This document shows positions 9,805-64,000 of a DNA stretch of 64,000 nt, one piece after another. A program made the position numbers and the translations under genes. The notes beneath the pieces are model-generated. The model did no database searches. It saw only the letters and a program-made list of their open reading frames with translations, and had not been told where the DNA came from. The stretch's first letter is position 1. Each line of letters opens with the position of its first letter. The stretch covers positions 9,893 through 73,892 of the forward strand of contig CAVRAD010000013.1 of NCBI GenBank assembly GCA_963718845.1. Direction: 5' to 3'. Source of the stretch: an uncultured Acidobacteriota bacterium (GTDB taxonomy: Bacteria; Acidobacteriota; UBA6911).

Positions 9805-9935
9805 TTGCAGGCCAAGTATATATCAAGTCGAAGCGTCCCCTCTCTCCAAGAATGCGGCAACCGCCGAACCATGATATGATGCCCGCCGTCCATTGCCCCC
9901 CGTTCGGGCGGATCCTATTGGCGCACGGGAGTCCC

Positions 9936-10937: not shown

Positions 10938-10970
10938 TACGGCAGCAGGCAGTTGCTACGAAAACTCCCG

Positions 10971-11714
10971 TTATTGTGAAATGGGAAAATCCTCTTCGAC
11001 GACGGTAGCGTAATTTTTAAAGCCTCTGGCGATCAGGATGTCCATATTCGTCAGCCGCACACCGGTCTGATTGATGCGCTCATAAATTCCGCATACGCCG
11101 GCAATGTCGTATCCCTCCAGAGTTATCAGGGGAATACTGTAATTCGTGAAGACAAATTGCAACTGCTCAAGATTCTTGTTGACCGACTCGGAAAATCCCT
11201 GCAGAGAAGTGAGCGAGCAACGGTAGTCCGCCGACAAGCCCGGGGCGTCTTTCAGGCGAATGAGAAACGCCGGATCGGCATCCCATCGATGCTTGTAATA
11301 GTCTTTCTCGAAGAAAAATTCCGCCTTGGTCAAATCAAAATAGAGCGTATAGTCGAACGAAAACTGCTCCCGGGTTCTGCCCGTCCCGCCGTAAAAGGAG
11401 GCAAGCAGGGACGTGGCTCGCTGCTGCCCGTCGAGAATATAGGACCGTGACGATTGGTTGGAATCGTTGTCCCCCGGAAGATAAAACCCGCCCAACTGTC
11501 TGTGCACATGAAGCCGGACTTTGGTTTTCCAACACAGAATGCTACCGATCGGATAGCACCGGTAGATGCTGTCCCATAGATTGACGATGTGCTCCGGATC
11601 CCAAATGAACAAGCGCTGAAACGTCGGAATCAGAAACTCACCGGCCGCAAGCTGGCATATAAAGTCACTGAGGTTCTTATTCCTGGTGGTGATTTTTCGA
11701 TTGCGGTAATCCAA
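10971..11714 (-). CDS. DUF262 (ParB/GmrSD N-terminal-like) domain protein, no nuclease partner domain
   Basis: Motifs IPTFQRLFIWD and ILDGQQRATSL. At 247 aa it ends without a DUF1524/HNH module. The region is visibly more A/T-rich than its neighbours. Confidence 0.75.
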   Translation of the reverse strand: MDYRNRKITTRNKNLSDFICQLAAGEFLIPTFQRLFIWDPEHIVNLWDSIYRCYPIGSILCWKTKVRLHVHRQLGGFYLPGDNDSNQSSRSYILDGQQRATSLLASFYGGTGRTREQFSFDYTLYFDLTKAEFFFEKDYYKHRWDADPAFLIRLKDAPGLSADYRCSLTSLQGFSESVNKNLEQLQFVFTNYSIPLITLEGYDIAGVCGIYERINQTGVRLTNMDILIARGFKNYATVVEEDFPISQ

Positions 11715-12643: not shown

Positions 12644-14719
12644 ATGGGAACACCGGGATTTGCAGGTAAGATACTTCTTATCAATCTGACAACCAGACAA
12701 ATCAGTGCATTAGATTCTGCTAAATATGAAGCATACGGCGGCGGGCACGGAACAGGCACTGCCCTCTTCTGGGACCTCTGCGTGGCTCCGGGCGGCTGGG
12801 ACCTTCAAGATGCCTTCGATCCGAGAAACATTGTAGCATTGATGACGGGGCCACTGGCCGGCACAGGACTCGCATTTGCAGGAAGAACCAGCGTCTCCGG
12901 CCTGGCTGCGCAGACCTGGCCGATCAATTGGTTCGGCCACAGCAATTTCGGCGGCAGTTTCGCACCCGCGCTCAAGCTTGCCGGATGGGACGGTGTGGTA
13001 GTCCAGGGAAAATCGGAATCACCCGCCTATATCAACATCGTTGACGACAATATCACGATTGAGGATGCCGGCCCCTTGTGGGGACTCAACGTTTGGGAAA
13101 CCCAGGAAGAAATCTGGAAAATGGAGAGCACAAAGGCGCCCGTTCGATACGGCTCCGAGTGGCAGAATCTGGGAAACAAATATTCCACACAGCGCCCCTC
13201 CATCGTGACTATTGGCCCGGCTGGTGAAAACAAATCCCGTATCGCCTCCCTCGTTCATGCCGGAGGATCCGGCGCCGGCCAGGGGGGATTCGGCGGCGTT
13301 TTCGGATCCAAAAACCTGAAAGCCATCGCGGTCGTCGGCACCGGCAGCATCAAGATAGCCAATCCCAAAGCAGTGCTGGAAGCGAGGGAGTGGTTTGAGG
13401 CCACATTCCCCATGAGCGGTCAGCGCGGCCCCGGCAGGGATATAAAGCCGGGAGTTTCCTGCTGCATGGGCTGCAACCGCGGATGCCACAGCAGGAGCCA
13501 GATTCAGGGCGTGGATTCGGACAGCTGCACCGAAATGGTTTGGTATAGTCTTCCTTCTCCTCCTTACAAACGCACGCCGACATCGGACATGTGGAAAGCA
13601 AGCGACGCGGTCCAGAAGCTCGGCTTGAATGCTTCCGACCTCTGCTTCATGGGGGCCGCGAGTTTCCCGGCACTGCCGGACACTGAGATAGGGTCGATAT
13701 GCCCAGCGAACACCGGCGCCGGGTGGTACATCAAGAGACTGTATGACATGGGTGTCATCGGTCCGGGAAAAAAGATAGACACCCATCCCCTGCCGATGGA
13801 TCAGTATGAAAAAGTTGAATTCGCCGAAATATTTGCGCTGGCAATCGCCAAGCGCATCGGGATAGGAGATTTGCTCGCCGACGGGATCGTCCGCTTTGCC
13901 GAAAAAATAGGAAGAATCAGCGACCTGGACAGCATCCTGCGCTTGCCGGCATGGGGATACATGGATCACTGGACCATGCCGACGGTGGAGTGGGCGTATG
14001 GCAACCTGATGGATTCCAGAGACATCAACAACCATGACATGCAGCTTGGCCCCACCAAGCTGATGTCTTGCGAGCAATATGTCAAATTGCTGGCGTCCGC
14101 AAGTCCTCCCTATAGCGACGACCCCTTCATGTTCGATTACAGCTGGCAGGGTGAACAGGCATACAAAACCGGCATCTACTCCGACCACAAAGCCAAGTTC
14201 GTCGCCTGGCACCAGCATTATGCAACATACTATAAGGAATCGGCACTCTTTTGCGATTGGGCAATGGGCAACTATTTCAATCCGTCCAATCCCGACGGAA
14301 AGGGAGCAACACCGGAAGCGGAACCCCGTTTCCTCAACGCCGTCACAGGAAAGAATCAAACTTTTCTGGATGGCATCGAGATCGGCCGCAGAGCCTGGAA
14401 TCTGAAGAGGGCTATCTTCGTACTGCAGGGCAGGACCCGGGAAAACGAAAAGTTTTCAGGGTATATGTACAAACGGGGCGCATCCATGGCCAACTTCGGG
14501 ACTACATTGCCGGTCTACGACGGTTCCAAGTGGGACTGGGCTGACTGCCGGGAGCTGTATCTTGACGACAAGGGCGTCGAACAATGGAAGACCGCCTTCT
14601 ATCAGATTGAAGGCTGGGATTCCAAAACAGGCTATCCCAAGAGAAAAACGCTGGAAGATCTCGGCATGAAACATGTCGCAGACGTGCTCCAGTCGAATAG
14701 CAAGCTTGGACAGGCATAA
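12644..14719 (+). CDS. Aldehyde:ferredoxin oxidoreductase family (W/Mo pterin) enzyme
   Basis: AGGGAGAG RBS. AOR-type N-terminus GFAGKILLINLTTRQI and YGGGHGTGTALFWD, with cluster motif CCMGCNRGC. 691 aa. Confidence 0.9.
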   Translation: MGTPGFAGKILLINLTTRQISALDSAKYEAYGGGHGTGTALFWDLCVAPGGWDLQDAFDPRNIVALMTGPLAGTGLAFAGRTSVSGLAAQTWPINWFGHSNFGGSFAPALKLAGWDGVVVQGKSESPAYINIVDDNITIEDAGPLWGLNVWETQEEIWKMESTKAPVRYGSEWQNLGNKYSTQRPSIVTIGPAGENKSRIASLVHAGGSGAGQGGFGGVFGSKNLKAIAVVGTGSIKIANPKAVLEAREWFEATFPMSGQRGPGRDIKPGVSCCMGCNRGCHSRSQIQGVDSDSCTEMVWYSLPSPPYKRTPTSDMWKASDAVQKLGLNASDLCFMGAASFPALPDTEIGSICPANTGAGWYIKRLYDMGVIGPGKKIDTHPLPMDQYEKVEFAEIFALAIAKRIGIGDLLADGIVRFAEKIGRISDLDSILRLPAWGYMDHWTMPTVEWAYGNLMDSRDINNHDMQLGPTKLMSCEQYVKLLASASPPYSDDPFMFDYSWQGEQAYKTGIYSDHKAKFVAWHQHYATYYKESALFCDWAMGNYFNPSNPDGKGATPEAEPRFLNAVTGKNQTFLDGIEIGRRAWNLKRAIFVLQGRTRENEKFSGYMYKRGASMANFGTTLPVYDGSKWDWADCRELYLDDKGVEQWKTAFYQIEGWDSKTGYPKRKTLEDLGMKHVADVLQSNSKLGQA

Positions 14720-20021: not shown

Positions 20022-20255
20022 TCAGTTCAATGTTGGCCATGTTGGTTCGATGCCTCCATTTTTTCGTAGTACCTAGTCCCTTTTTAAAACATACCATAAT
20101 GGCTGCGCGGATGAAGCAAAAGTAGAGGCCTGTTCCTCGTTGCGGGGCATCCCGGTGCTTTTCTTGACCGAACTCGTGAAATGAGTATAGTTAAACTGTA
20201 GTCCGCTTACGCTGCAGGGGACAAATTCAGTTTCAGTGGCTCGAAATGGTTTGCC

Positions 20256-20326
20256 GGTCAGGGCTTCAGACACTGTCTCTCCACTAAACTATATTTAGTG
20301 GAGAGACAGTGTCCGAAGCCCTGACC
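20256..20326. repeat. Long near-perfect inverted repeat (33-nt arms, 1 mismatch, ~5-nt centre)
   Basis: ggtcagggcttcagacactgtctctccactaaa / tttagtggagagacagtgtccgaagccctgacc, in the divergent gltA-pckG intergenic region. Confidence 0.85.
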
Positions 20327-20458
20327 AGCAGGGTGTAGTTGCTTTTGGATTCATAGTATCGGCTATTGCCGCCGCGGCAAGTTTGATGCTGTTCGAACAA
20401 TACCGCAGGGCGAGGCAAAACTTGCATTATTCATTCTTCCATATCGAGGATTATTTCA

Positions 20459-25621: not shown

Positions 25622-27289
25622 ATGTATAGCGACTGCTTTAAATTAAGCGAACCGCCATTTTCGCTGACGCCGGATCCGCGCTTTCTGTTTATGAGTGAGC
25701 GGCACCGGGAGGGCTTGGCTCATCTATTCTACGGCGTCCAACAACCCGGAGGTTTTGTTCAATTAACAGGCGACATTGGATCCGGCAAAACGACTCTCTG
25801 CCGGTGTCTGATCAAGCAGCTTCCGCCCGGAACCGACATCGCGTTGATCCTGAATCCCCGTCTGACGGTCATCGAGCTACTGGCCACCGTCTGCGACGAA
25901 CTGGGTATTTCCTACCCGGTGGAAGCCGCGAGCAACAAGGTCCTGATCGACGCGCTGAATCAACGATTGCTGGAATCGCACGCCAAGAGCAGGCGGACTG
26001 TTCTTATCATCGACGAAGCACAAAACCTGAACGAGGATGTGCTGGAGCAGATCCGGCTATTGACGAATCTTGAAACGTCCAAGGAAAAGCTGCTCCAGAT
26101 AATTCTGATCGGGCAACCGGAGCTGCTCTCGCTTCTCAAGCGAAAGAACCTTCGGCAGCTCGCGCAGCGCATCACGGCGCGATACCACCTGCTCTCCCTG
26201 TCCAGGAGCGAGACGTATGCCTATATCCAGCACCGTTTGTTGGTCGCAGGCAGGAAAGACCCTCTTTTCACCCGGTGGGCGATGCATTGCGTCTATCGTC
26301 GCTCCCGGGGGATACCTCGCGTTATCAACATCATTTGCGACCGGGCCTTGCTCGGGGCCTATGCACTGGATGCCCAGCGCGTCAGCGCCGGCATCGTGCG
26401 CAAAGCCGGCCGGGAAACGAAAGGATCAATTTCTTGGCTCAGGAGGGTTCGCTTTGCCTGGGTTGCCGGAGCCTTGGCGCTCATGGCATTGATCGTGGCG
26501 GCCGCGATATATTTTGCGCCTGTAAGTCTATCCGAACTCCGCCAGAAGACAGCAGATTTTGGGAAACAGGGCAATCCACAATCCGCCAACCAATCCGAAC
26601 AGGCTCCCGCAATACCGGGGGAATATGCCGCCGGCTCTCCAGTCACGGATCGCCGCAAGGCCCGGCTCGATGTGCTTCTGGCCGGAGCTCCTGCGAGCGG
26701 CAAAAGCGGTTTCAGCTACGCCAACCTATATGACCGATGGGGACTCAAGCTCGCTGCCAATGAATCCAATACCGGTTGCAGCGCCGCCCGCGCCCGGGGA
26801 TATGATTGCCTGCAGCAGACAGGAAATTGGCTCAAGCTGCGCCGATATGATTTGCCGGCTGTTCTAGAGATTGTGCTGCCCAGCGGGAAGCGGCGCCAGA
26901 CAACGGTCGTCGAGCTAAAAAATGAAACGGCAACTCTTGCCATCAACAATCGGGAATACACATTCGCTCTGTCTGAAATCAACGGAGTGTGGGACGGATC
27001 CTTCACTGTTCTGTGGAAACCCCCTTTTCCCTTGCGCCCGCTTTCGATCGGCGACAGCGGAAAAGAAGTGCTTTGGATCCGGCATGCACTCGACACGATG
27101 GAAGGGAAAGCACAAAATCCGGCTGATTCGGAATTGTTCGACGAAGACCTCAGGCAGCGCATCCTGGCATTTCAGCGCAGCCAATCCCTAATTCAGGACG
27201 GACTGGTAGGCAGCGAGACGCTTGTGCGGATGACCGTTGCCCTTCAGGGAGTGAACGCTCCATCCCTATCTCGTCGCGCTCGACACTAG
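25622..27289 (+). CDS. ExeA/GspA-family AAA ATPase with C-terminal peptidoglycan-binding domain
   Basis: Starts at ATG 25622. Motifs FSLTPDPRFLF, Walker A GDIGSGKTT and LIIDEAQNL, a TM segment, and a C-terminal PG-binding-like LRQRILAFQRSQSLIQDGLVGSETL. Confidence 0.8.
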   Translation: MYSDCFKLSEPPFSLTPDPRFLFMSERHREGLAHLFYGVQQPGGFVQLTGDIGSGKTTLCRCLIKQLPPGTDIALILNPRLTVIELLATVCDELGISYPVEAASNKVLIDALNQRLLESHAKSRRTVLIIDEAQNLNEDVLEQIRLLTNLETSKEKLLQIILIGQPELLSLLKRKNLRQLAQRITARYHLLSLSRSETYAYIQHRLLVAGRKDPLFTRWAMHCVYRRSRGIPRVINIICDRALLGAYALDAQRVSAGIVRKAGRETKGSISWLRRVRFAWVAGALALMALIVAAAIYFAPVSLSELRQKTADFGKQGNPQSANQSEQAPAIPGEYAAGSPVTDRRKARLDVLLAGAPASGKSGFSYANLYDRWGLKLAANESNTGCSAARARGYDCLQQTGNWLKLRRYDLPAVLEIVLPSGKRRQTTVVELKNETATLAINNREYTFALSEINGVWDGSFTVLWKPPFPLRPLSIGDSGKEVLWIRHALDTMEGKAQNPADSELFDEDLRQRILAFQRSQSLIQDGLVGSETLVRMTVALQGVNAPSLSRRARH

Positions 27290-38848: not shown

Positions 38849-38956
38849 CCTTTCGGAGTGCGGCAGCTTGCTGCCGCTTTCAAGAGCATCCTTGAAAAGC
38901 AGGCACATTGGGCTGTTTTCGAAAGCGGCAGCGAACAGCCGCACATCTCCGAAAGG
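38849..38956. repeat. REP-like element: two inverted copies of a hairpin-containing unit
   Basis: Arm 1 (38849-38880) is cctttcggagtgcggcagcttgctgccgcttt. Arm 2 (38921-38956) is gaaagcggcagcgaacagccgcacatctccgaaagg and is degenerate. The same unit occurs at 61009-61132. Confidence 0.85.
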
Positions 38957-45967: not shown

Positions 45968-46036
45968 CGGTACCTGGTTATACTGTCCCTACCCATATTT
46001 CCGGGGAGGGACAGTATAACCAGGTACCGATTTTTT
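45968..46036. repeat. Perfect 23-bp inverted repeat with 16-nt spacer followed by T6
   Basis: cggtacctggttatactgtccct (45968-45990) pairs with agggacagtataaccaggtaccg (46007-46029), followed by attttttaa. It lies ~135 nt upstream of the Mo-hydroxylase operon start. Confidence 0.8.
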
Positions 46037-53753: not shown

Positions 53754-54131
53754 TTAAAAGGCGATTTTCTCGTAGTATTCCGCAACCACGGGACCATCCA
53801 GAAAAGCAGCGATATCGAGACCGAGTTCCTTTAAGTGTTGGCCGTGGGCCTGTATCGCGGCTTGATCTACGTATTCCTCGAAGAAAAGAAACAGGCGCGG
53901 ATTATCTTTGGACCGGCACATCGTATAGGCGCGATTCCCCGGCTCCTGCCGCACTTTAGGCACAATTCCTTTCATGAGCGTTTCAAACTCTTTTTCCTTG
54001 CCCGCTTTGATCGTCAGCTTGGCCGTCAGCGTAATCGTATTTCCTTCTGCTTTGCCAATATCCATAAAATTCCCCGCAGCTAAAATGAAACCACATACTG
54101 CAATGATCGCCAGAATTCTTCGGCCTTTCAT
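53754..54131 (-). CDS. Antibiotic-biosynthesis-monooxygenase (ABM) fold protein with signal peptide
   Basis: ATG 54131 follows GGAGGAG. Signal MKGRRILAIIAVCGFILAAG. ABM-like FLFFEEYVDQAAIQAHGQ. Confidence 0.65.
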   Translation of the reverse strand: MKGRRILAIIAVCGFILAAGNFMDIGKAEGNTITLTAKLTIKAGKEKEFETLMKGIVPKVRQEPGNRAYTMCRSKDNPRLFLFFEEYVDQAAIQAHGQHLKELGLDIAAFLDGPVVAEYYEKIAF

Positions 54132-54149
54132 AGGACTCCTCCCCAGCAA

Positions 54150-54210
54150 GGAATTTGGTGTCAGGCACCATTTTCACTAAAAGTGAAAATGGTGCCTGAC
54201 ACCAAATTCC
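54150..54210. repeat. Perfect 29-bp-stem hairpin (3-nt loop) in SDR-ABM intercistronic gap
   Basis: ggaatttggtgtcaggcaccattttcact aaa agtgaaaatggtgcctgacaccaaattcc. Confidence 0.9.
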
Positions 54211-54220
54211 AGATCCTTTT

Positions 54221-55066
54221 CTAGTGCATCAGGGTTCCGCCGGTTACATTGATAGAAACCCCCGTTATGTATTGCGACTGTTCGCTGACCAGATAATAGG
54301 TCACATCGGCGATATCTTCGACCTTTCCCATCCGTTTGAGCGGGACCATGTTGGTGAGCATTTTATATTCATCTTCCCGGAATTGCTCCACCGTGATGCC
54401 CTTCTCTTTGCTGTGGAGGGTGGCATCGTCATCGCGCAGGTTTGTCGCGAAGAAACCGGGATTGATCGCGTTGACATTGATCTTGTAGGGCGCCAGCTCC
54501 ATTGCCAGAGCTTGCACGATGCCGATCACAGCCCATTTGGAAGCGGCATAGGCAGCACTCCCGGGACAAGGCAGTTTCCCTGCTGCGGAAGCGATGTGCA
54601 CAATTTTTCCGCCTTCATTTTTGCGAATCATCTCTTTGGCGACCGCCTTGGAAACGATCATGGTCCCCAGCGAGTTGACGTCAAACATCAGGCGCCAATC
54701 TTTTTCGTCGCCGTCCGCGATGCTGACGCCCACGGGGCCCCGTGTTCCAGCGCAGTTGACCAAGATGTCGATCCTGCCAAACTTGTCGATGGTCGCCTTC
54801 ACTGCGGCATTTACTTCCTTTGAATCCTCAACACCTGCTACAGCCCAGATCGCCTTCCGGCCCAGACCTTCGATTTCCTTGACAACATCCTCCAGGCCTT
54901 TCCAGTTCTCATCCCCGGCCCAAGCGCTTTTGGGAGCAGCGAATTTATCGGTCACCATCACATCGGCGCCTTCTTGCGCCAGTCGCAATGCGACCGCTCG
55001 TCCCATGCCCCGCTTTGCTGCCGCTCCTGTGACAAAAGCCACTTTTCCGCTTAAAGCATTGCCCAT
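54221..55066 (-). CDS. SDR family oxidoreductase
   Basis: ATG 55066 follows AAGGAGG. Motifs VAFVTGAAAKRGMG, NCAG and YAASKWAV. Confidence 0.85.
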   Translation of the reverse strand: MGNALSGKVAFVTGAAAKRGMGRAVALRLAQEGADVMVTDKFAAPKSAWAGDENWKGLEDVVKEIEGLGRKAIWAVAGVEDSKEVNAAVKATIDKFGRIDILVNCAGTRGPVGVSIADGDEKDWRLMFDVNSLGTMIVSKAVAKEMIRKNEGGKIVHIASAAGKLPCPGSAAYAASKWAVIGIVQALAMELAPYKINVNAINPGFFATNLRDDDATLHSKEKGITVEQFREDEYKMLTNMVPLKRMGKVEDIADVTYYLVSEQSQYITGVSINVTGGTLMH

Positions 55067-55091
55067 ATCACTGCCTCCTTATTTTATTGAT

Positions 55092-55194
55092 GAATTTCGG
55101 TGACAGTCACCATAACTCCCAAATTCCTGCGAATTGACCGACCCCCGATACATCAGGATGAATTTGGGAGTTATGGTGACTGTCACCGAAATTC
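55092..55194. repeat. Perfect 35-nt inverted repeat with 33-nt spacer in PrpD-SDR gap
   Basis: gaatttcggtgacagtcaccataactcccaaattc (55092-55126) pairs with its exact reverse complement at 55160-55194. Confidence 0.9.
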
Positions 55195-55195
55195 G

Positions 55196-56566
55196 TTATG
55201 TCAGTAGACGGATGATTTCTCGAGCATCATTCAATTGCTCGAGTCCTCCGACTAGTTGCACGATATTTTCAATCCGCCCCGTATCCAGGCTTTTTGCACA
55301 ATCTCTGAATTTCCTCACACAATCATCGAAAGACATAGGCCGATCGAGACTGCCGAGAGGGTTCTCTACTACCTTCGCAAAAGTCCGGCCATCCTTTGTT
55401 AGTACCGTCACCCGCGTTGGCTCCGGGCCAGGCCTGTGAAGCGTGTTGTCCACTTCCACCCGCATCTTCTGAGTGACTTCCAGGACTTCGCGGTTCTTGA
55501 TGGCGTTTTCCGTAAAATCGTCCAATCCCACACGCCGCCCCACGATTGACGACGCAACGCCCCACGGAATGCTGAACTGGGCATCCACGGGACTTCGCGG
55601 GGATCGCTTCGCATCCAACGGTTGGCAAAGCAAAGAAAAGTGCGCATCGGTGACGGAAAGCACGATTTCCCTTATATCTCCGCTGCGGATATTCTCCTCG
55701 AGGGCCAAAGCTAATCCGGCGTCAATGGCTGGATGAATGCCGCGACAGCACGGATACGGCTTGATTGCGACATTAACGCCTTCGAATCGTTTTCCTATAT
55801 CCGCCGTAAGAATTTCCCGACTGTAATCCCCATGCATGTATTGCTGGTAGAGCCCCCATTCGCCTTCGAAGGAATTCTTTGCGCCGGTAACGCCGGCCTT
55901 CGCCAGCAATGCGGCCGTGATGCCTCCCTTGATGGCAAATCCCGGCCCCAGCCTCTTTGCCAGCGCACCGTCCTTGACACATTGACCGTTGCCTGCGCAC
56001 TGGTGATAGCCGATCCCGATAGCATTGACCATCGTCTCTTCATCCAAACCCATGACTCTGGCAGCTGTCGCAGCCGAACCCATAAAGCCGAACAGCGATG
56101 TCAGATGCCATCCCAGCTCGATCGGGCTCTTGCCGGGAGTTGTAGCCAGTGCCAACCGGCACATCATGTCGACGCCCAGCGCAGTGCTTGTGATCAGCTC
56201 CTTGCCGCTGAGACGCCCATGCGCTTCACCCACAGCGATGACGACGGGTATGGATGCGATACCCGGATGCATGACGGCCGCTTCGTGGACATCGTCAAAA
56301 TCCAGAGAATGCGCCATCGTGGCGTTGGCCTGCGCGGCATTGGGCGCCGGCACTTTCTGTTTGCTGCCGATGATGCTGCTTTCTTCCTTGCCGCCCCACT
56401 CCTTCACAAGCGCGCACACGTGCGTAGCGCCGGGCTGATTGGCGCCCCCCAGCGCGACACCTAGCAGGTCCAGAATCTCTTTCTTGGTTGCGTCCACAAC
56501 ATCGGCGGACAGGTCTTCGTACTTTGTATTTACAAAGTTTTTGGCAAACAAATAAGCAGCATCCAT
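55196..56566 (-). CDS. MmgE/PrpD family protein
   Basis: 456 aa. PrpD-like features are N-terminal FAKNFVNTKYEDL, then HSLDFDD and KPYPCCRGIHPAIDA. Confidence 0.85.
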   Translation of the reverse strand: MDAAYLFAKNFVNTKYEDLSADVVDATKKEILDLLGVALGGANQPGATHVCALVKEWGGKEESSIIGSKQKVPAPNAAQANATMAHSLDFDDVHEAAVMHPGIASIPVVIAVGEAHGRLSGKELITSTALGVDMMCRLALATTPGKSPIELGWHLTSLFGFMGSAATAARVMGLDEETMVNAIGIGYHQCAGNGQCVKDGALAKRLGPGFAIKGGITAALLAKAGVTGAKNSFEGEWGLYQQYMHGDYSREILTADIGKRFEGVNVAIKPYPCCRGIHPAIDAGLALALEENIRSGDIREIVLSVTDAHFSLLCQPLDAKRSPRSPVDAQFSIPWGVASSIVGRRVGLDDFTENAIKNREVLEVTQKMRVEVDNTLHRPGPEPTRVTVLTKDGRTFAKVVENPLGSLDRPMSFDDCVRKFRDCAKSLDTGRIENIVQLVGGLEQLNDAREIIRLLT

Positions 56567-56597
56567 ACTGTAATCTCCGATGATTCCAAATTCCTGA

Positions 56598-56650
56598 TTC
56601 CAGATTCCAGATTCCAGAATAATTCCGAGTCAGGAATCTGGAATCTGGAA
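56598..56650. repeat. Inverted repeat built from gattcca units (18-bp stem) in crotonase-PrpD gap
   Basis: ttccagattccagattcc (56598-56615) pairs with ggaatctggaatctggaa (56633-56650). Confidence 0.8.
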
Positions 56651-56653
56651 TTA

Positions 56654-57532
56654 TTATTTATCGAAATCGTCCAGCATTTTGAAAACGTCGTGCTTTTCGT
56701 GGGCAGCTTCCTTGACGCCTTTGTCTCTTCGCATCTTGAAGAAGTTGACTTCGCCCTCGTCCAGGACTCTGTTGGTCTGGACGGTGTGCATGATGTAGTG
56801 ATCGACCAGTCCACGATCGATGCCCATGGTCGTGTAAATCATCTCCCGCATCGCCTTGCCGACCGCTATGCCGTCTTTGGGGTGCATACACAGGCCGTGT
56901 GCCAGGTTTCGGACTTCTTCGTCGAGTTTTTCGGCCGGCACCGCTTTATTGATCAGGTTGTATTCTGCAGCTTTGATGCCGTTGAATCGTCTGCCGGTGA
57001 GGCAAAGCTCCATCGCGCGTGTGAATCCGCAGCGAAGTATCATGATGGGCGTGAGCGTCATACCGCCCTGGCCGAGGCGCTCTTCAACGTGTCCCATCTG
57101 GCAGTCCTCGCTGGCGATGATCATGTCGCAGTGCGATATGATATTGAATGCGATGCCGAGACAATAGGTGTGGAGTTGAGCGATCGTCAGCTTCTTGCAG
57201 TAGAGAATTCTTCTGTGGAAATCCAGAAAGACGCGCCGGTCGAATTCGAATTTTACTCTCAGGGGGATGCGCTGTTTTCCTTTTTCGCCGGGCTTCGGGT
57301 CTTTCATACCGTAGACGTAACCCACTCCCGTCAGGTCGGCGCCTGCGCTGAAAGCGCGTCCCGCGCCTTTGAAGACGATTACCTTCACATCGTCATCGTT
57401 CTCAGCTTCGTCTAAAGCCGCCGTCCAATCGCGATAAATCTCCGGGCCGATGGCATTGAGCCGGTCCGGCCGGTTTAGAGTGATGAATGCGATCTGTTTT
57501 TCTTTTTCGTATTTTATGAACTCTAGTTCCAT
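56654..57532 (-). CDS. Enoyl-CoA hydratase/isomerase (crotonase) family
   Basis: Motifs IAFITLNRPDRLNA and FKGAGRAFSAGADL. Confidence 0.85.
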   Translation of the reverse strand: MELEFIKYEKEKQIAFITLNRPDRLNAIGPEIYRDWTAALDEAENDDDVKVIVFKGAGRAFSAGADLTGVGYVYGMKDPKPGEKGKQRIPLRVKFEFDRRVFLDFHRRILYCKKLTIAQLHTYCLGIAFNIISHCDMIIASEDCQMGHVEERLGQGGMTLTPIMILRCGFTRAMELCLTGRRFNGIKAAEYNLINKAVPAEKLDEEVRNLAHGLCMHPKDGIAVGKAMREMIYTTMGIDRGLVDHYIMHTVQTNRVLDEGEVNFFKMRRDKGVKEAAHEKHDVFKMLDDFDK

Positions 57533-57550
57533 AATGAGACCTCCATTTAG

Positions 57551-58780
57551 TTATTCAAGTACACCTGCAGCAAGAAGCTCTATGAACTCTTCATCCGTCT
57601 TGCCCAGGATCTTCGTTAAAACATATTCGTTGTGTTCGCCCATGCACGGGCTTGGCGCTGACGCGCGCGCCGGCGTCTCTGACAAAACCATGCTTGCTCC
57701 GAGATGCGTGAACATGCCAATCTCGCTGTGCTCCATCGGCCAGAAAAGACCGCGCGCACGCAACTGGGGATCCTCAAAAAGGTCGGCGGAGTTTTCGACT
57801 ATCCCCGCGGGAACGCCTGCCGCCTGCAAGGAAGTCATCACGTCATCCGGCACCCGATCGATCGTCCACGCTTCGATCAAAGCATCCAAAGCCGTTTCAT
57901 TTTCTTTCCTGTGCTGCAGCGTGTCGAACCGCGGGTCAGTCGCCAGCTCCGGTTTGCCAATCAACTTGCACAGTGCCATCCATTGAGACTCGCTGGTTGC
58001 GGTGATAGTGCACCAGCGCTCCTCGCCTTTGCAGGGATACACGTTGTGCGGAGCGGCCCAACTCACGGCATTGCCGCTGCGAACAGGTTCACGGTCATTA
58101 ACCGCAGTGTCGAGAAGACCCGGCAACAGGAAATACAGCGCCGTTTCAAACTGCGCCAGGTCGATACGCTGGCCTTTCCCCGTCCTGTCGCGATAATCCA
58201 AGGCAGCAATAAGAGCGGCGGAGGCAAAACGCGGACTGATGCAGTCTGTATAGGCACCCACTCCCACAGGCAGCGGCCCTCTGTCCGGCCATCCGATGTA
58301 ATTGGGTATTCCGGCGATCGCCGCGAGGATCATCCCAAAGGCTGCCAGATTCTTGTACGGGCCCTCGGTGCCGAATCCATTTTGCCGCACCATGATGATG
58401 TCCGGGTTGATGCTCGTCAGCGCTTCGTAGCCAAGCCCCCATTTATCCATGACACCCGGCGTAAAGTTTTCCATCACAACATCCGCCCAGCCAATCAGCT
58501 CTTTCGCCACACCCATGCCCTGGGGGGTTGTCATGTTCAGCGACAGGCTCATCATGTTCGCGCTGAAGTGATTAAAATACCCACTGCGATTGAGCCCGGC
58601 GACATTGTCCTTGAAGGGCGCAGACGTTCTTGTGACGCAGGGACGCGTGCTCGTTTCCACGCGCACAACCGTCGCGCCGTAATCGGCAAAAAATTTCAGT
58701 GTCAGCGGGCCTACCATGGCCCAGCTAAACGCCGCGATCTTCAGATCCTCGAAAACTCTCTTCCCCATTTGTTCCTTCAT
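57551..58780 (-). CDS. CaiB/BaiF family III CoA-transferase
   Basis: The start is ATG 58780 or 58768. Motifs GPLTLKFFADYGATVVRVE, NRSGYFNHFSANMMS and ENFTPGVMDKWGLGYE. Confidence 0.85.
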   Translation of the reverse strand: MKEQMGKRVFEDLKIAAFSWAMVGPLTLKFFADYGATVVRVETSTRPCVTRTSAPFKDNVAGLNRSGYFNHFSANMMSLSLNMTTPQGMGVAKELIGWADVVMENFTPGVMDKWGLGYEALTSINPDIIMVRQNGFGTEGPYKNLAAFGMILAAIAGIPNYIGWPDRGPLPVGVGAYTDCISPRFASAALIAALDYRDRTGKGQRIDLAQFETALYFLLPGLLDTAVNDREPVRSGNAVSWAAPHNVYPCKGEERWCTITATSESQWMALCKLIGKPELATDPRFDTLQHRKENETALDALIEAWTIDRVPDDVMTSLQAAGVPAGIVENSADLFEDPQLRARGLFWPMEHSEIGMFTHLGASMVLSETPARASAPSPCMGEHNEYVLTKILGKTDEEFIELLAAGVLE

Positions 58781-58789
58781 TTCTCTTCC

Positions 58790-58893
58790 AAGGATCAAAG
58801 GATTAAAGGATTAGAGGATCAAAGGGAAAGAAGTATGAACCACTTCTTCCCTTTACCCCTTTAATCCTCGGATCCTTTAATCCTTTAATCCTT
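58790..58893. repeat. Imperfect ~45-50-nt inverted repeat of aaggatt-type units in OYE-CoA-transferase gap
   Basis: aaggatcaaaggattaaaggattagaggatcaaagggaaagaagt pairs with acttcttccctttacccctttaatcctcggatcctttaatcctttaatcctt. Confidence 0.8.
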
Positions 58894-58895
58894 CT

Positions 58896-60986
58896 TCACA
58901 CCTCACGGGCTGTACGCAGACCGGTGCCGATGGCATCCGCAATCAGCAGCGGCTCTCGGCAATCGCCGATGGCATAGACTTCGGGGACTTTTGCCTTTAG
59001 GCTGCTGAGCAGCTCGTCATTGGGCGTCAACGGCAGTGCCGTCGCGATGCTGTCTGCTTCGATCGTCTGCGTTTTGCCGTCACTCGTAATGATAGTTAGG
59101 CCTTTGCCGGTAATTTCGACGTATTCCTTGACGCCGCTGATCAGGGTTACGCCCTCTTTCCTAAACCACATCAACAGGTTAGACAGCAACGCATCGACCA
59201 TGCCTTCACCGATCATTGGCTTGGTTTCAACGACCGTGACTTTGCGGCCCCGCTTGGTAAGAAATTCGGCAAGCTCGCAACCCTGAATCGCTCCGCCGAT
59301 GACAATGACGCTTTTACCCATTGGCATATATAGCTTGGTCAGCGTTCTCAGCATTTCCGGCTTAAAAAACTTCAGGGCGAACTTCAGTTGACGGTGCAGA
59401 GCGACGCCGCTGATTACGTTAGGCTTGTCGATGCCAGGAATCTTCGGAACCGTTGAAGTGCCACCCGTGGCCAGGAAAACAACATCCGGCTTGATCCTGT
59501 CAACAACCGCGAGATCCGCCTCAGTCCCGAGTTCCACCTTTACGCCGAGTTTGGCAAGCTGCCGCGAGAAATAGTTGGTGATAAGCGACAGATCTTCGGG
59601 ACGAGAGCCCTTTACTATCGCGGCGAGCGGCATCAATCCGCCAAGCATGGTTGACTTCTCATAGAGAGTTACGTCATGGCCACGGAGCGCGGCGACTCTC
59701 GCGGCCGACATGCCACCCGGCCCGCCACCGATCACAAGGACTTTTTTCTTCGCCGGCGCCTTTTCGATAGTGTTGTACGGCGTGCCCAACAAGCCGTTGA
59801 TTCTGCATCGGCGGCTTCCCAGGCAGTTATCGCAGCCTGTGCACGGCTGGATATCGTCCACGCGTCCTTCGGCAAGCTTCTTCGGATAATCCGGGTCGGC
59901 CAGAAGACGACGAGTCATTGCGATAAAATCCACCTTCCCTTCCCGGAGAATTCTTTCTCCAAGGTCCGCGTCGAGTTTCCCCACCACGGTAACGGGAATA
60001 GATACGGCGCTCTTGATTCCGGCGGCGGCGGGAATATTGGCGCCCACGCCAAGATCACTTGCGTTGTATGCTTGTGGAAAATTCTCAATCGGTATGGGAG
60101 GCGCCGGGTAGAAAAGCGAGTCAGGAAGATACGCGCCGACGTGATATCCCAGAAAATGACTTCTGACCTGAATCGCGTCTGCGCCCGCTGCCTGCAAACA
60201 CTTGGCTATTTCCCGGGCGTCTTCATGCGTCAGGCATTCGCTGTCCGGAACGCCAATGGCCTGGCCCATTTCAACGCCATTTAGGATAATCGATACCGGA
60301 AAGTCATTCCCCGCGCGCTTTTTGATTTCCCGTATAACGTCCATCGCGAAGCGAGCCCGGTTCTCGATGCTTCCGCCGTAGTTATCCGTGCGCTTGTTCC
60401 AGAAAGGAGAAAAGAAATTATGCAGCAGATGGCTGCTGGCAGCGTTGATGTCCACGCCGTCGAATCCCGCCTTGCGAGCACGGAGAGCAGCGCTGGCGAA
60501 TTTGTCCACGATTTCCTGGATTTCTCCGACGGTAAGCGGGTGGGGCTTTTCCGCGTGAAAGTCGCCTTCAAACTCGAAACTGACGGCAGATGCGCCGATG
60601 GGCGGGCCGTCGTACATCGGCTCGGGCACGAAAGGAAGCTTTACCTGCCACGGCCCGTCGTGGTTCATCTGCATAAAGGTCGGGCAGCCATGTTTGTGGA
60701 TTATGGAGGTTAGCTCACTGAGTCCCTGGATATATTTGTCATCGTCGATGCGATAACGCTCTTTCCATCGTACGCCCCGGGGGTAATCAATTGTCGGCGA
60801 TTCCACGATCAGGAGACCGACGCCGCCTCTCGCAATACCCTCGTAAAACGCCATGACTTCCGGGCGCATATGCAGGTCATCCTGGTGCCACATGAGCATG
60901 CCGGCGCCTGATTTGACGATGCGATTTCTGGTTTTTACCGACCCTATGCGGCCAGGCTCGAGGAGTTTTTCATATTTTGGATTCAT
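58896..60986 (-). CDS. OYE-like NADH:flavin oxidoreductase fused to FAD/NAD(P)-binding domain (2,4-dienoyl-CoA/enoate reductase-like)
   Basis: Starts at ATG 60986 (GTG 61001 is also possible). The TIM-barrel OYE part contains HDGPWQ and GFDGVDINAA. The FeS motif is CTGCDNCLGSRRC, followed by VLVIGGGPGGMSAA. Confidence 0.85.
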   Translation of the reverse strand: MNPKYEKLLEPGRIGSVKTRNRIVKSGAGMLMWHQDDLHMRPEVMAFYEGIARGGVGLLIVESPTIDYPRGVRWKERYRIDDDKYIQGLSELTSIIHKHGCPTFMQMNHDGPWQVKLPFVPEPMYDGPPIGASAVSFEFEGDFHAEKPHPLTVGEIQEIVDKFASAALRARKAGFDGVDINAASSHLLHNFFSPFWNKRTDNYGGSIENRARFAMDVIREIKKRAGNDFPVSIILNGVEMGQAIGVPDSECLTHEDAREIAKCLQAAGADAIQVRSHFLGYHVGAYLPDSLFYPAPPIPIENFPQAYNASDLGVGANIPAAAGIKSAVSIPVTVVGKLDADLGERILREGKVDFIAMTRRLLADPDYPKKLAEGRVDDIQPCTGCDNCLGSRRCRINGLLGTPYNTIEKAPAKKKVLVIGGGPGGMSAARVAALRGHDVTLYEKSTMLGGLMPLAAIVKGSRPEDLSLITNYFSRQLAKLGVKVELGTEADLAVVDRIKPDVVFLATGGTSTVPKIPGIDKPNVISGVALHRQLKFALKFFKPEMLRTLTKLYMPMGKSVIVIGGAIQGCELAEFLTKRGRKVTVVETKPMIGEGMVDALLSNLLMWFRKEGVTLISGVKEYVEITGKGLTIITSDGKTQTIEADSIATALPLTPNDELLSSLKAKVPEVYAIGDCREPLLIADAIGTGLRTAREV

Positions 60987-61008
60987 GCTTACGCCTTTCA
61001 CTTTATAC

Positions 61009-61132
61009 CCTTCGGAGTGCGGCAGCTTGCTGCCGCTTTATGAGTTCCCGGTTTGCAGGTATCCTGCAAATAAAAACTGGGAACTGGAAACTCTAAACTC
61101 CAAAGCGGCAGCAAGCTGCCGCACTCCGAAGG
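61009..61132. repeat. REP-like element: perfect 31-nt inverted arms, each with an internal 8-bp hairpin
   Basis: ccttcggagtgcggcagcttgctgccgcttt (61009-61039) pairs with aaagcggcagcaagctgccgcactccgaagg (61102-61132). The same unit occurs at 38849-38956. Confidence 0.9.
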
Positions 61133-62380
61133 ATTCTAAATAACTCCAGAATTCTCAGCAATTCGAGCTTTTCCATCGACAGTCCCAATTCGCCGTAGAT
61201 CTCGGCGTTGTGCTCGCCGATGAGGGGCGCCCGGGAGCGCGTCGCCATCTCATTTTCCGAAGATCGCGCGAACTGTTTCGGATACGGGATAGTCATCCGT
61301 AACTCCGGATGCTCGATCGGCGCCCAGAAGTTTCTCGCCGCGAGGTTGGGATCGTTGAGGAGGTCATGGTTGCCCATCAGCGGACAGATGGAGATGTTTC
61401 TCGACATCGCCGCATCCAGGGCTTCCTTCTTGGTCCGCGTCTTGAAGAATTCGGCGATCGGCTGCGAAATTCGGTCTATCAGTTCCTGCGTGGCGCTAGC
61501 CATATCAAACTTTTCCCATTCATAGGTCAGAAGGAATTCATTGGCCATGCCCTCTTCCTGCATCCATTTCACCAACTGGCGGCAGGTCTTTGCGCCCTGC
61601 TGCCCGCCGATCATGAAGAAAAATACGAATCCGTCTTTGCACGGCCATACCTGCCGCTGCAAAGTACCCCGACTGCTTGTGCGAAAGGTGCCCACCCTGC
61701 CGAGGACGAGCTTGTCGATTTCCCAGTGAGGCACGGTCTGGGCCAGGAACCACGCGGCGCTCTGCTGCATGGAAACATCCACATGCTGCCCTTCCTCCGT
61801 CATCCTTCTATGATGATGGGCAAGCATCGAACCCACGGCCGCGTCCGCGCCCGCATGCAGGCATGCCTGCGGCACGCTCAAATTCACCGGCCTGCGATCC
61901 GAATCACCGGTCATGAAAAGCTCGCCGGACATTCCCATGACCACGAGGTCGGAAGCTTGATAGTGGCGGTAGGGACCTTTCTGGCCAAAGGGAGTGATCG
62001 AGGTGAGGATGATATCCTTTTTAATACGGCGCAGTTCCGAATAGCCGAGTCCCAGTCCTGTCCATTTCTCCCGGCGCAAATGATTCGATAACAAAATGAG
62101 CCGTTTTAACCAGATCGCGGAATAGGCGCTTCCCTTCCTCTGTTTCCAGATTGAGCGTAATTCCACGCTTGCTGCTGTTGTATGAAAACCAGTACAGGCT
62201 TTTTTCCGGATCGACCTCGTCATGCCAGAAGGGCCCGATATTGCGAGCAGCGTCGCCCCCGGGCCTTTCCACTTTTATGACGTCGACACCCAGTTCAGCC
62301 AGGATCTTGCCGCACAAAAAACCCTTTTCATCCGTCAGATCCAGGGCGCGATATCCTTCCAGCATTCTTGTACGCGTCAT
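61093..62380 (-). pseudogene. CaiB/BaiF family III CoA-transferase, one frameshift; 3' end runs into a repeat
   Basis: ATG 62380 gives MTRTRMLEGYRALDLTDEKGFLCGKILAELGVDVIKVERP. Removing the base at 62056 restores PGEMDRLGLGYSEL. The last ~13 codons (RSAAACCRFGV) are encoded by the repeat arm. Confidence 0.8.
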
Positions 62381-62385
62381 GGCTG

Positions 62386-62809
62386 CTAGGCTTTCCCTTT
62401 GGCTTTCAAATCGGCCCAAAGATCCGCAATGGCCGCTTTCACATCAGAGGCAGGCGGATATACACGGTCAAATCCCAGATTCTTGAACCTCACTTCGTCG
62501 TTCTCAAAGTCATGCTTTCCGACGCCGAGATTCCCGCCGATGTAAAGGATCACGTCATTCAGGCCCGCTGCGATGCAGCTTGTCTCTAAATCCCTGCACA
62601 TCGTTCTCCCCCATCCCATAAAGCGAACTCATGAGGATAGCGTCTGCCTTGTTCTCAAGAGCGGCCTTGATGAACTCCTCCGGGGGAGTCAGGATTCCCA
62701 ATTCCACAACATTGAATCCGGCATCACGCAAAGCGCGAGACAAAATTTTCGTTCCAATCACATGAGCGTCCCTGCCCACCGTTCCTGTCACTACCGTTGG
62801 ATTAGTCAC
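62386..62809 (-). pseudogene. glmS: Methylaspartate (glutamate) mutase S subunit-like B12-binding protein, one frameshift
   Basis: GTG 62809 follows AAGGAG. Motifs GRDAHVIGTKIL (DxHxxG) and SSLYG. Removing one base near 62578 gives FRDKCIAAGLNDVILYIGGNL. Confidence 0.8.
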
Positions 62810-62866
62810 AATTGCAATTCTCCTTCACTGAAATTAGCGATCCTTCTGCTCGACTTCGGGATAAAC

Positions 62867-62922
62867 CAGAATTCAGGAGTCCGAATATAAAAGCATCGAC
62901 TCAATCCTTCTTCTGAATTCTG
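62867..62922. repeat. Weaker inverted repeat (13 bp with one G-U) in glmE-glmS gap
   Basis: cagaattcaggag (62867-62879) pairs with cttctgaattctg (62910-62922). Confidence 0.5.
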
Positions 62923-62943
62923 CCTCCTGTCTTCTGTCTTCTT

Positions 62944-64000
62944 TTAAGGTTTCCCGATCAACTGGCCCTTGCTGAACGCCCAGAAGTCTTGAACGAAAGC
63001 TTCGTAATCCATTTTCCTGCCTTCGTTTTTTTCCCTCTCGGCCACCTTCTCCCGGTGAAATTTTTTGACTTCTTCAGGCAGCGGAAGATTACCGAAATCG
63101 AGATAACGAATGGCGCCTTTGCTGTCCTTGATGCCCATTACTTTATCTCGAACCTGCTTATTGGGACTGAAGCAGGAATCCAAAAAGCCCTCTTCCACGC
63201 ATTTAATGCAGCCCACGATGATGTCGCCGTTGCCCACCTCAAGGATCTTGTCCAAAAGGGCCCGTATTTCGAGTTCGGCGATATGGGCTTCTTCGTCGAC
63301 CTCCTTCATCTCAAATTTGATCTGCTGGCCACGGATGACATTGAGGAGCCAGTTTGTGGATTCGTAACTGAGCCCATGCGATTCTTCCGTAGGGATGCCG
63401 AGGGCCTCATCGATGGTCCTCACCGAAACGGCTTCCGCATTCCCGAGCGCAGCTACAACTGCCGTGTAGTTTGGAAACGCAAAGGCGCCCCCCATCCCCT
63501 GAGGCATGGGGAAAAGAGGCGTATGCTGCGCGAAAACGCCGGCGATCATTACATCCGCGTACCCGAGCTTGTCGAGATACTCGCGCATTAATTTTGGAGT
63601 CACGCGGATCCATGCCAGATCCTGCGCCATGTTGCCCATCAGGTGAACGACGGACGTAATGCTCTTTCCTCCCTGTTCGGCGACCATCAATGCATCCACG
63701 ATGGTGGTTGCGAGGTTCACAGTCATCGGCTGCATGCCTGTGAGAATCCATCCATGATTGTCAGTGGAAATAGTGACGCCGCGGTCGGCATAATAGCCGA
63801 TGAGCCGGTGGACATACTGGTTTGTGGCCATGGACTGCTCCAGCGTCGCATCCTTTTCGTACGCTGCCCATGAGATAAACGAAGACGCGGCGATTCCGGT
63901 CATGCCGGCCGCGAATGAGATTTCCGTTGCCAACGGATACGATTTCAGAGAAAGCCTGGGATTGAAGGCGCCCTGGTCGACACTCTCGATGATTCTTCTT
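62944..64000 (-). CDS. glmE: Methylaspartate (glutamate) mutase E subunit-like protein, N-terminus outside window
   Basis: The frame is open to the window edge. The C-terminus IRYLDFGNLPLPEEVKKFHREKVAEREKNEGR...SKGQLIGKP parallels the clostridial GlmE tail as I recall it. Confidence 0.75.
   Translation of the reverse strand, partial: RRIIESVDQGAFNPRLSLKSYPLATEISFAAGMTGIAASSFISWAAYEKDATLEQSMATNQYVHRLIGYYADRGVTISTDNHGWILTGMQPMTVNLATTIVDALMVAEQGGKSITSVVHLMGNMAQDLAWIRVTPKLMREYLDKLGYADVMIAGVFAQHTPLFPMPQGMGGAFAFPNYTAVVAALGNAEAVSVRTIDEALGIPTEESHGLSYESTNWLLNVIRGQQIKFEMKEVDEEAHIAELEIRALLDKILEVGNGDIIVGCIKCVEEGFLDSCFSPNKQVRDKVMGIKDSKGAIRYLDFGNLPLPEEVKKFHREKVAEREKNEGRKMDYEAFVQDFWAFSKGQLIGKP

Follow-up and report, generated by a model that had tools for sequence, protein, structure and literature searches.

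Small foldback repeats of several families in the intercistronic gaps of a catabolic gene cluster in Acidobacteriota

Six inverted repeats (hairpins hp1 to hp6, Table 1) lie in the intercistronic gaps of a catabolic cluster of nine genes on the minus strand of a contig from an uncultured Acidobacteriota bacterium (lineage UBA6911, assembly GCA_963718845.1, contig CAVRAD010000013.1). The stretch analysed, positions 9,893 to 73,892 of the contig (64,000 nt), is referred to here as the window. Five of the repeats are long and very stable. They belong to several families that recur in other gaps and other genomes, they lie between the stop codon of one gene and the ribosome-binding site of the next, and their sequences turn over rapidly while their positions are kept. 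In our judgement, the gaps probably hold dispersed, small, non-coding palindromic foldback repeats that are maintained and reshuffled as DNA and tolerated at these sites.

All gaps were folded as RNA of the coding (minus) strand, and each minimum free energy (MFE) was expressed as a z-score against 200 dinucleotide shuffles. For the gaps of hp1 to hp5, not one of the 200 shuffled sequences folded as well as the native one. This agrees with the architecture proposed in an initial annotation of the window, in which each gap consists of one long hairpin followed by the next ribosome-binding site. The same annotation had claimed a hairpin in nearly every gap, and all six inverted repeats were located where it had placed them; five of them hold up with z-scores of -5 to -13, but the sixth does not, as 58 of the 200 shuffles match the fold of the glmE/B12 gap and its 13-bp stem is therefore at chance level. 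This hairpin, hp6, is probably a decayed foldback. For comparison, 22 Acidobacteriota loci with a syntenic cluster (21-kb loci of relatives) were used, which come from phylogenetically related genomes, so that counts across them are not independent. Among 50 cluster hairpins, the first base is found at a median of 5 nt past the stop codon (interquartile range 2-8) and the last base at a median distance of 17 nt from the start codon, which leaves the Shine-Dalgarno sequence free; in every fold of the window it is unpaired. The hairpin hp2 starts 1 nt past the stop codon of PrpD, and 12 nt separate its end from an AAGGAGG ribosome-binding site. A scan of the window with Rfam 15 returned nothing at the gathering threshold, and below it only generic look-alikes of miRNA precursors.

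Table 1. Hairpins, folded gaps and genes of the cluster, with further hairpins of the window. Gene assignments are from Pfam and follow the order of transcription; the last column gives the state of each hairpin in L026, a different genome with about 95% DNA identity to the window.
Feature	Position	Strand	Description	MFE (kcal/mol)	z	State in L026
hp1	54150-54210	(-)	SDR/ABM gap; perfect 29-bp foldback, 3-nt loop, REPIN-like			replaced by unrelated TTCCCGT-unit foldback
hp2	55092-55194	(-)	PrpD/SDR gap; 35-nt perfect arms, 33-nt loop, REPIN-like, arm core GGTGACAGTCACC			intact
hp3	56578-56663 (core 56597-56651)	(-)	ECH/PrpD gap; foldback of GATTCCA heptamers, period 7			all units in both arms GATTCGA instead of GATTCCA
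hp4	58790-58893	(-)	OYE/CoA_transf_3 gap; 50-nt imperfect arms, AAGGATTA/AAGGGGTA octamers, period 8			AAGGATTA/AAGGGGTA-type family kept, units rearranged
hp5	61009-61132	(-)	CoA_transf_3/OYE gap; composite, outer 31-nt perfect REP-like arms (CCTTCGGAGTGCGGCAGCTTGCTGCCGCTTT)			replaced by unrelated GATTCGA foldback
hp6	62867-62922	(-)	glmE/B12 gap; weak 13-bp stem inside TCTTCTG/CAGAAGA heptamer-like repeats (period 7 at 62909-62942)			longer; window copy looks truncated
SDR/ABM gap	54134-54220	(-)	folded gap	-52.6	-10.7
PrpD/SDR gap	55067-55195	(-)	folded gap	-68.4	-10.9
ECH/PrpD gap	56567-56653	(-)	folded gap	-35.3	-5.1
OYE/CoA_transf_3 gap	58781-58895	(-)	folded gap	-62.0	-8.0
CoA_transf_3/OYE gap	60988-61135	(-)	folded gap	-91.9	-13.0
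glmE/B12 gap	62810-62943	(-)	folded gap	-30.4	-0.5
Host operon	53754-64000	(-)	genes below
glmE	64000-62944	(-)	cut off by window end
B12-binding gene	62809-62386	(-)
CoA_transf_3 (first)	62419-61093	(-)	family III CoA-transferase
OYE + Pyr_redox reductase	60987-58896	(-)	OYE-type reductase fused to pyridine-nucleotide oxidoreductase
CoA_transf_3 (second)	58780-57551	(-)
ECH	57532-56654	(-)	enoyl-CoA hydratase
MmgE/PrpD	56566-55196	(-)
SDR	55066-54221	(-)	short-chain dehydrogenase
ABM	54133-53754	(-)
REP-like doublet	38858-38944		second copy of hp5 outer-arm family; convergent gap outside cluster		-7.5
Near-perfect hairpin	20252-20330		37-nt arms; divergent gap (dicodon caller)		-12.4
Near-perfect hairpin	45968-46029		27-nt arms; 513-nt gap, divergent by dicodon gene caller		-10.1

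Two classes of elements are found in the gaps. Those of the first class are foldbacks in which a tandem array of 7-nt (sometimes 8-10-nt) units is followed by a loop and by the complementary array; hp3, hp4, hp6 and the centre of hp5 are built in this way. The arms have a period of 7 nt in 33 of the 50 cluster hairpins and of 8-10 nt in seven, and ten are aperiodic. With Tandem Repeats Finder (TRF), a period of 7 was detected in the window at 56582-56618, 56633-56651, 61074-61092 and 62909-62942 and a period of 8 at 58790-58893; such heptamer and octamer arrays are almost exclusively located in cluster gaps. The units ATTCGAG, ATTCCAG, ATTACGA, ATTGACG, GTTTCCC, GTTCCCC, GTTTCCG, AGTTCCC, AGTTCAG, GGTTCAG, AAGGATTA, GTTTACGC and CACGGATTT recur across gaps and genomes. 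Members of the second class are doublets similar to those described as REPINs, in which two inverted units of 25-35 nt form a long hairpin and each unit contains a short palindrome of its own (GGAGTGCGGCAGCTTGCTGCCGC; GAATTTCGGTGACAGTCACC). This class comprises hp1, hp2 and the outer arms of hp5. The internal palindrome is TGGTG-TCAGG-CACCA in each arm of hp1, GGTGAC-A-GTCACC in hp2 and GCGGCAGC-TT-GCTGCCGC in the outer arms of hp5.

The hairpin sequences had initially been described as unrelated to each other, which proved wrong in part. A core of about 20 nt, GAATTT(C)GGTG(T/A)CAG(G/T)CACCAT, is common to the arms of hp1 and those of hp2, and a related arm is present in the PrpD/SDR gap of L005. 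The outer arms of hp5 are the repeat found again at 38858, and arms of this type (consensus TTTGGAGTGCGGCAGCTTGCTGCCGC) were identified in six elements of five genomes (window at 61009 and 38858, L008, L012, L014 and L016). In two of these elements (L008:15811-15889 and L012:11381-11470) the arms differ at two palindrome positions (GCGGCAGC/GCTGCCGC compared to GCGCAAGC/GCTTGCGC); the paired changes keep each arm self-complementary and represent covariation within the unit. The 62-nt centre of hp5 (61040-61101) is a heptamer foldback of AGTTTCC/AGTTCCC units with the loop motif TGCAGGATA. The same composite of REP-like arms (after repetitive extragenic palindromic sequences) round a heptamer foldback was seen in the metagenome contigs L078 and L138, with (T)GCAGGAT as the shared loop motif. 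The motif GGAGTGCGGC occurs ten times, at different positions, in 6 of 23 acidobacterial sequences (the 22 loci and the window), and copies with homologous loops are located in different gaps of one genome (L001 at 5452 and 9901, L012 at 1739 and 5080). In 731 kb of outgroup loci, the unit motifs are nearly absent. The proposal of a shared architecture that is not a single repeat family is thus not supported: the hairpins are members of a few dispersed families, which recur in other gaps, genomes and operons and also in convergent and divergent gaps. An assembly artefact was rejected as an explanation, as the hairpin families recur in many independent public assemblies, both metagenome-assembled genomes (MAGs) and metagenome contigs, of different projects.

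Two further kinds of repeat were seen in the relatives. Hairpins of another REP-like motif (GGCTTCAGCCCCGAC / GGCTTCAGCCGCGAC), which may represent a further family, are located downstream of the cluster in L001 (12945-13051) and L009 (17273-17387). In L004, two segments 3.5 kb apart (10918-11044 and 14453-14579) have identical 15-nt arms (GCTTTTTCCAGTGAA) and 97-nt spacers with an identical start, probably the result of a local duplication.

Comparison of the syntenic clusters revealed that the position of the hairpins is kept while the sequence is not. Homologues of PrpD with 74-93% identity were all from Acidobacteriota MAGs and metagenomes; of the two closest JGI contigs, gene spacing alone entered the comparison. 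Across the 22 loci, the six junctions are usually 80-160 nt long and mostly strongly folded, whereas two others are short in all loci (B12/CoA-transferase, 5-26 nt, mostly 5-9 nt; CoA-transferase/ECH, 17-24 nt). The latter gap (57533-57550 in the window, 18 nt) has no hairpin in any genome compared, and in the window the reading frames of the B12-binding protein and the first CoA-transferase abut at a junction without a hairpin. For the ECH/PrpD gap, the z-score is -4.7 or lower in 17 of the 21 genomes, and the sequences fall into at least nine unrelated types. L001 contains hairpins at seven junctions, the six and one upstream of the first CoA-transferase, each unlike that of the window. In L026, the glmE/B12 gap holds a longer foldback of CAGAAGT units (z -4.5). 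In about 20 related genomes, corresponding gaps thus hold hairpins that differ in sequence, the outcome for which the initial annotation had proposed to examine orthologous clusters. Many cluster hairpins are weaker (z between -2 and -4), and empty gaps of 23-45 nt were found at corresponding junctions of L003 and L004 (PrpD/SDR), L015 and L017. No hairpins were detected in the partially syntenic outgroup clusters of Syntrophorhabdaceae and deltaproteobacteria (e.g. L022); strong inverted repeats amount to 2.0 per 10 kb in the acidobacterial loci and 0.57 per 10 kb in the outgroup loci. Taken together, the filled junctions, the short empty gaps and the bare outgroups indicate that the hairpins are lineage-specific insertions of 50-120 nt into short spacers.

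Turnover of the elements is fast and bears the marks of processes acting on DNA. Window and L026 differ by 12% at fourfold-degenerate sites, and over this distance two hairpins were replaced by unrelated foldbacks, one was rearranged and one exchanged the same base in all units of both arms (Table 1). Between L003 and L004, which differ at 30% of fourfold sites, the hairpin families persist; indels of 13-14 nt, about two heptamer units, affect one arm only. The loop of the OYE/CoA-transferase foldback is reverse-complemented between these two genomes (L003:7693-7791 and L004:2796-2880; 16 of 17 positions identical when inverted), which indicates that either the two arms recombined or the element was re-inserted the other way round. 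Nested or composite elements are present among the cluster hairpins as well. Slippage clearly has a part in arm length. On the sense strand, the mismatches of the 50 hairpins were of the G:U type in 24 cases and of the A:C type in 22; the imperfections are therefore strand-symmetric, as in DNA palindromes, without the G:U excess of a selected mRNA stem.

The families are not restricted to this cluster. Within the window, the claim that other operons lack such gaps was essentially right, since among the roughly 14 same-strand gaps of 30-500 nt outside the cluster only one reaches a z-score of -5 or lower, compared to 5 of 7 in the cluster. However, three equally strong hairpins are present in non-operonic gaps at 20252, 38858 and 45968, and the first of these, in a divergent gap, makes clear that the operon is not the only place for long hairpins. 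The hairpins at 20252 and 45968 had no visible likeness to the cluster families, although no search for further copies of them was made. In the sampled loci, strong inverted repeats were found in 47 of 110 cluster gaps (43%) and in 10 of 73 other same-strand gaps (14%; Fisher p = 3.6e-5); six of these ten adjoin the cluster. Convergent gaps of the 22 loci contained them in 10 of 33 cases. Genes outside the cluster were called with crude callers of our own: the enrichment counts used a longest-ORF rule, and contexts were assigned with a dicodon model.

The GTTTCCC foldback family (GTTTCCCGTTTCC...GGRAACGGGRAAC) is present in at least 120 metagenome contigs. Among the matches listed (120), three are the syntenic cluster, 62 correspond to the 3' end of an AAA_25 gene in a module of rve, AAA_22 and AAA_25 genes, and 55 remain. 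Because GC-rich repeats open in several frames, context calls by the longest frame were ambiguous, and the contexts of metagenome matches were determined with a dicodon model trained on cluster genes, which replaced the longest-frame rule. Classifiable contexts among those 55 listed matches were same-strand in 15, convergent in five and divergent in five cases, and the same-strand cases among the matches listed are usually located 5-20 nt past a stop codon. In the operon thrS-infC-rpmI-rplT-pheS-pheT (L097:1-5402), foldbacks were seen in three consecutive gaps (2226-2297, 2692-2837 and 3866-3906), so that operons with several hairpins exist outside the catabolic cluster as well. As the families occur in all gap classes and in other operons, they are general intergenic colonists in these organisms. 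The initial annotation had named equal density in all intergenic classes as the observation that would count against its proposal. For this one family the proportions (15:5:5) come roughly to that, but the cluster gaps remain about three-fold richer than the other same-strand gaps, with a hairpin density still higher in this operon than in the sampled neighbouring DNA.

The elements were inserted into spacers that ancestrally measured about 30 nt, from the stop codon to the Shine-Dalgarno sequence of the following gene, and they turn over quickly there at the DNA level, with gain and loss of units, arm-to-arm recombination (loop inversion), nesting and replacement by another family. A transposase, gene conversion or slippage may account for their spread. 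An insert that folds on itself would keep the stop codon near the next ribosome-binding site, would leave the Shine-Dalgarno sequence single-stranded and would give Rho no unstructured RNA to load on. The operon would tolerate the elements because such an insert neither functionally separates stop codon and ribosome-binding site, nor occludes the Shine-Dalgarno sequence, nor loads Rho. The nine genes presumably form one transcript, as synteny and spacing suggest, and if transcribed the elements must form stem-loops of -35 to -92 kcal/mol. Most likely, these stems would act like REP sequences of E. coli, i.e. as a barrier to 3'-to-5' exonucleases and as a partial point of transcription or processing. 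Upstream segments might then be protected and downstream segments attenuated, so that the relative amounts of the cistrons would be skewed. On this reading, such effects on the mRNA would be a by-product of mobile or recombining foldback DNA. Among the roles listed initially, that of miniature insertion scars is closest to the evidence.

Several observations limit this reading, some of them as signs that the repeats are more than passively tolerated. The arms of hp2 show no change in 70 positions between window and L026, whereas the 33-nt loop has three substitutions and one indel and the 16-nt spacer two changes; with a divergence of 12%, about eight changes would be expected in the arms (P ~1e-4, own arithmetic), which are thus conserved beyond neutral sites. 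Likewise, arms in L003 and L004 differ by about 3-9%, compared to 30% at fourfold sites. The ECH/PrpD gap is occupied nearly constantly despite its many sequence types, and the roughly three-fold enrichment of the cluster within the sampled loci is not explained by passive tolerance and leaves a selected role possible. No transposase linked to the hairpins was found in the window or in the fetched genome loci, and the gaps gave no recognisable target-site duplication, so that transposition is only one possible route of spread. The empty gaps of relatives come with too much divergence for the limits of insertions or for duplications to be defined; L026, the one close relative, shows replacement instead of empty sites. 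Heptamer foldbacks could also be formed or relocated by slippage, template switching or gene conversion.

Host-selected punctuation of the operon is a possible, if less probable, explanation. Here, each slot would be kept filled by any stable hairpin, which would serve segmental mRNA stability, as an RNase III/E site or for translational uncoupling, with the repeat families as raw material. Position without sequence conserved over about 20 genomes, the strong folds of the ECH/PrpD gap, the enrichment of the cluster (also within the window alone), the arms conserved beyond the neutral rate and the Shine-Dalgarno sequence that is always free would all be expected under such selection. The same applies to the succession of a lost hairpin by another hairpin and not by an empty gap, as observed between window and L026, and it is known from E. 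coli that protective structures influence the stoichiometry of operons (PMC5927463). In contrast, selection on an mRNA stem does not agree with G:U mismatches that do not exceed those of the A:C type, and a loop flipped between species means that the loop sequence of the RNA does not matter. In addition, the operon is retained with short empty gaps in L003, L004, L015 and L017, many hairpins have decayed to the low z-scores mentioned above, and members of the same families occupy unrelated operons as well as convergent and divergent gaps.

An origin of the heptamer foldbacks in place, without mobility, is rather unlikely. Replication slippage of heptanucleotide repeats would act here together with template switching or with repair templated by the hairpin, as has been proposed for the cyanobacterial arrays of short tandemly repeated repetitive (STRR) sequences. 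Such an origin would account for the indels of about two heptamer units, for the many and often gap-specific unit types and for the concerted change of both hp3 arms; moreover, among the long simple repeats of most prokaryote genomes, heptanucleotide repeats are reported to be the commonest, which has been attributed to polymerase slippage (PMC4679880). On the other hand, copies with homologous loops are found at different loci of one genome (L001, L012), the composite with a common loop motif is present in unrelated contigs, and the unit consensus is kept across genomes with saturated synonymous sites. The aperiodic REPIN-like members cannot originate from slippage at all.

A more speculative reading, which is considered improbable, regards the heptamer foldbacks as the bacterial counterpart of foldback transposons, with arrays that would be read by a dedicated protein and hairpins that would have been co-opted as sequence-agnostic slots tuning cistron stoichiometry in certain selected operons. 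Interchangeable hairpins co-opted in this way would explain why slots stay filled while their contents are swapped. A candidate for the protein might be encoded in a module of rve (DDE integrase core), AAA_22 and AAA_25 genes, observed at L182:422-3623 (minus strand), in L076, L089, L145 and L158, and in at least about 57 other metagenome loci. The module resembles a transposition unit of the Tn7/Tn5053 type. At the end of its last gene there is always a foldback, GTTTCCC...GGAAAC around a TCTATAGGG centre, that codes for the C-terminal peptide FPVSRPIDPQGNGNGK, and this foldback DNA motif is retained even in the most diverged homologues seen (L103 and L158). No second heptamer array was found on the other side of the module. 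With a foldback on one side only, the module is unlike the parent of a two-ended miniature inverted-repeat transposable element (MITE). It was not found in the window or the genome loci, where the sole match was a weak one to AAA_22 (31% identity, E = 6e-6; window 25748-26251).

That the hairpins are intrinsic terminators or attenuators which split the cluster into separate transcription units is very improbable and was rejected: although they are strong, contain GC and start a few nucleotides past stop codons, downstream of which inverted repeats are generally enriched in bacteria (PMC13155455), and although REP325 is a partially Rho-dependent terminator (bioRxiv 10.64898/2026.03.23.713779), none of the five window hairpins is followed by a T-run (a U-tract in the RNA), as stated in the initial annotation, a consensus scan gave fewer terminator-like sites than shuffled sequence (9 compared to 12.8) and no excess of promoter-like sites after the hairpins (7 compared to 6.8), the stems are far longer than typical, and conserved synteny with ribosome-binding sites and no room for promoters points to one operon.

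Some reading frames of the cluster are disturbed in the window. Compared to L026, single-base insertions at 62582 and 62056 split the genes of the B12-binding protein and the first CoA-transferase into two frames each. The frame of the first CoA-transferase extends into the hp5 arm, owing to a 2-nt indel (61152, compared to L026) near the 3' end of the gene. L026 is frameshifted too, in the upstream CoA-transferase and in PrpD. The frameshifts in both sequences are either sequencing errors or real pseudogenes. An exact-match look-up of the PrpD protein of the window gave no record.

Acidobacteriota are abundant in soils and peat and poorly studied genetically. What is new here is a vocabulary of foldback repeats for one lineage of this phylum, which populates operon spacers with very fast turnover; no specific description of such elements in Acidobacteria was found in the literature. 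In practical terms, the elements make spurious tails of reading frames, break assemblies and alignments, and provide strain-level markers. Should they act like REP sequences, they would be a source of regulatory variation without changes to coding sequences or promoters. If the enrichment in the cluster reflects selection, it would be a clear natural case in operon design in which structure only is conserved.

Among known systems, the eukaryotic Foldback (FB) transposons have long inverted arms of short tandem subrepeats that vary in number, but these elements are kilobase-sized and encode a transposase in some copies; the likeness is a structural analogy only, with no relationship implied. 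The Correia elements of Neisseria are small, non-autonomous MITEs with terminal inverted repeats, which are located in intergenic regions, are co-transcribed and form hairpins cut by RNase III; elements of this type can supply a new end to a reading frame, as at the hp5 arm. For the cluster, inverted repeats were observed, and empty gaps in relatives. A target-site duplication was not recognised for the repeats described here, nor did the window or the genome loci yield a parent insertion sequence, and the inverted repeats make up nearly the whole element.

The REP, BIME and REPIN sequences of Enterobacteria and Pseudomonas are close analogues. They too are short palindromic intergenic units, occur also inside operons and vary in location between strains. 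A REPIN consists of two inverted REP units that form a long hairpin (PMC3337134), and transcribed REP sequences stabilise the upstream mRNA and attenuate downstream transcription (bioRxiv 10.64898/2026.03.23.713779). Inverted, self-palindromic units in a larger hairpin are found here only in hp1, hp2 and the outer arms of hp5. REP units are recognised by a GTAG (or CGTC) tetranucleotide at one end (PMC3733652), whereas the arms reported here lack such a head and end in GGAATTT, GAATTTC or CCTTCGGAGT. Y1 transposases with associated repeated secondary structures do occur in Acidobacteria (PMC6006769 and PMC3733652), but no RAYT gene is linked to the hairpins in the 64 kb of the source genome or the 21-kb loci of relatives. 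Furthermore, the arms are longer than in REP sequences and mostly perfect, and the majority of the elements belong to the heptamer-array class, which has no REP counterpart.

The closest parallel are the hairpins of cyanobacterial STRR sequences. Both systems have tandem 7-nt intergenic units and a hairpin that can form between genes of one transcription unit, which is a presumed one in the acidobacterial cluster. To judge from its title, a paper by Jackman and Mulligan (1995; PMID 7496536) reportedly described the nif clusters of cyanobacteria that are close relatives as having 'highly variable but structured intergenic regions'. In cyanobacteria, 7-bp repeats form hairpins between hupS and hupL, the function of which is unknown, with transcript stability or translational coupling as proposals (PMC2670836), and a related heptamer, ATTGCGA, is present in Nostoc (PMC2408588) and in L003. 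The two systems differ in that STRR sequences are direct tandem arrays, whereas here two inverted arrays are separated by a loop and are sometimes enclosed in REP-like arms. The host is a member of the Acidobacteriota and most units differ; the likeness is one of layout. The foldbacks of the acidobacterial cluster represent a second, independent example of intercistronic hairpins built from heptamers after the cyanobacterial STRR sequences.

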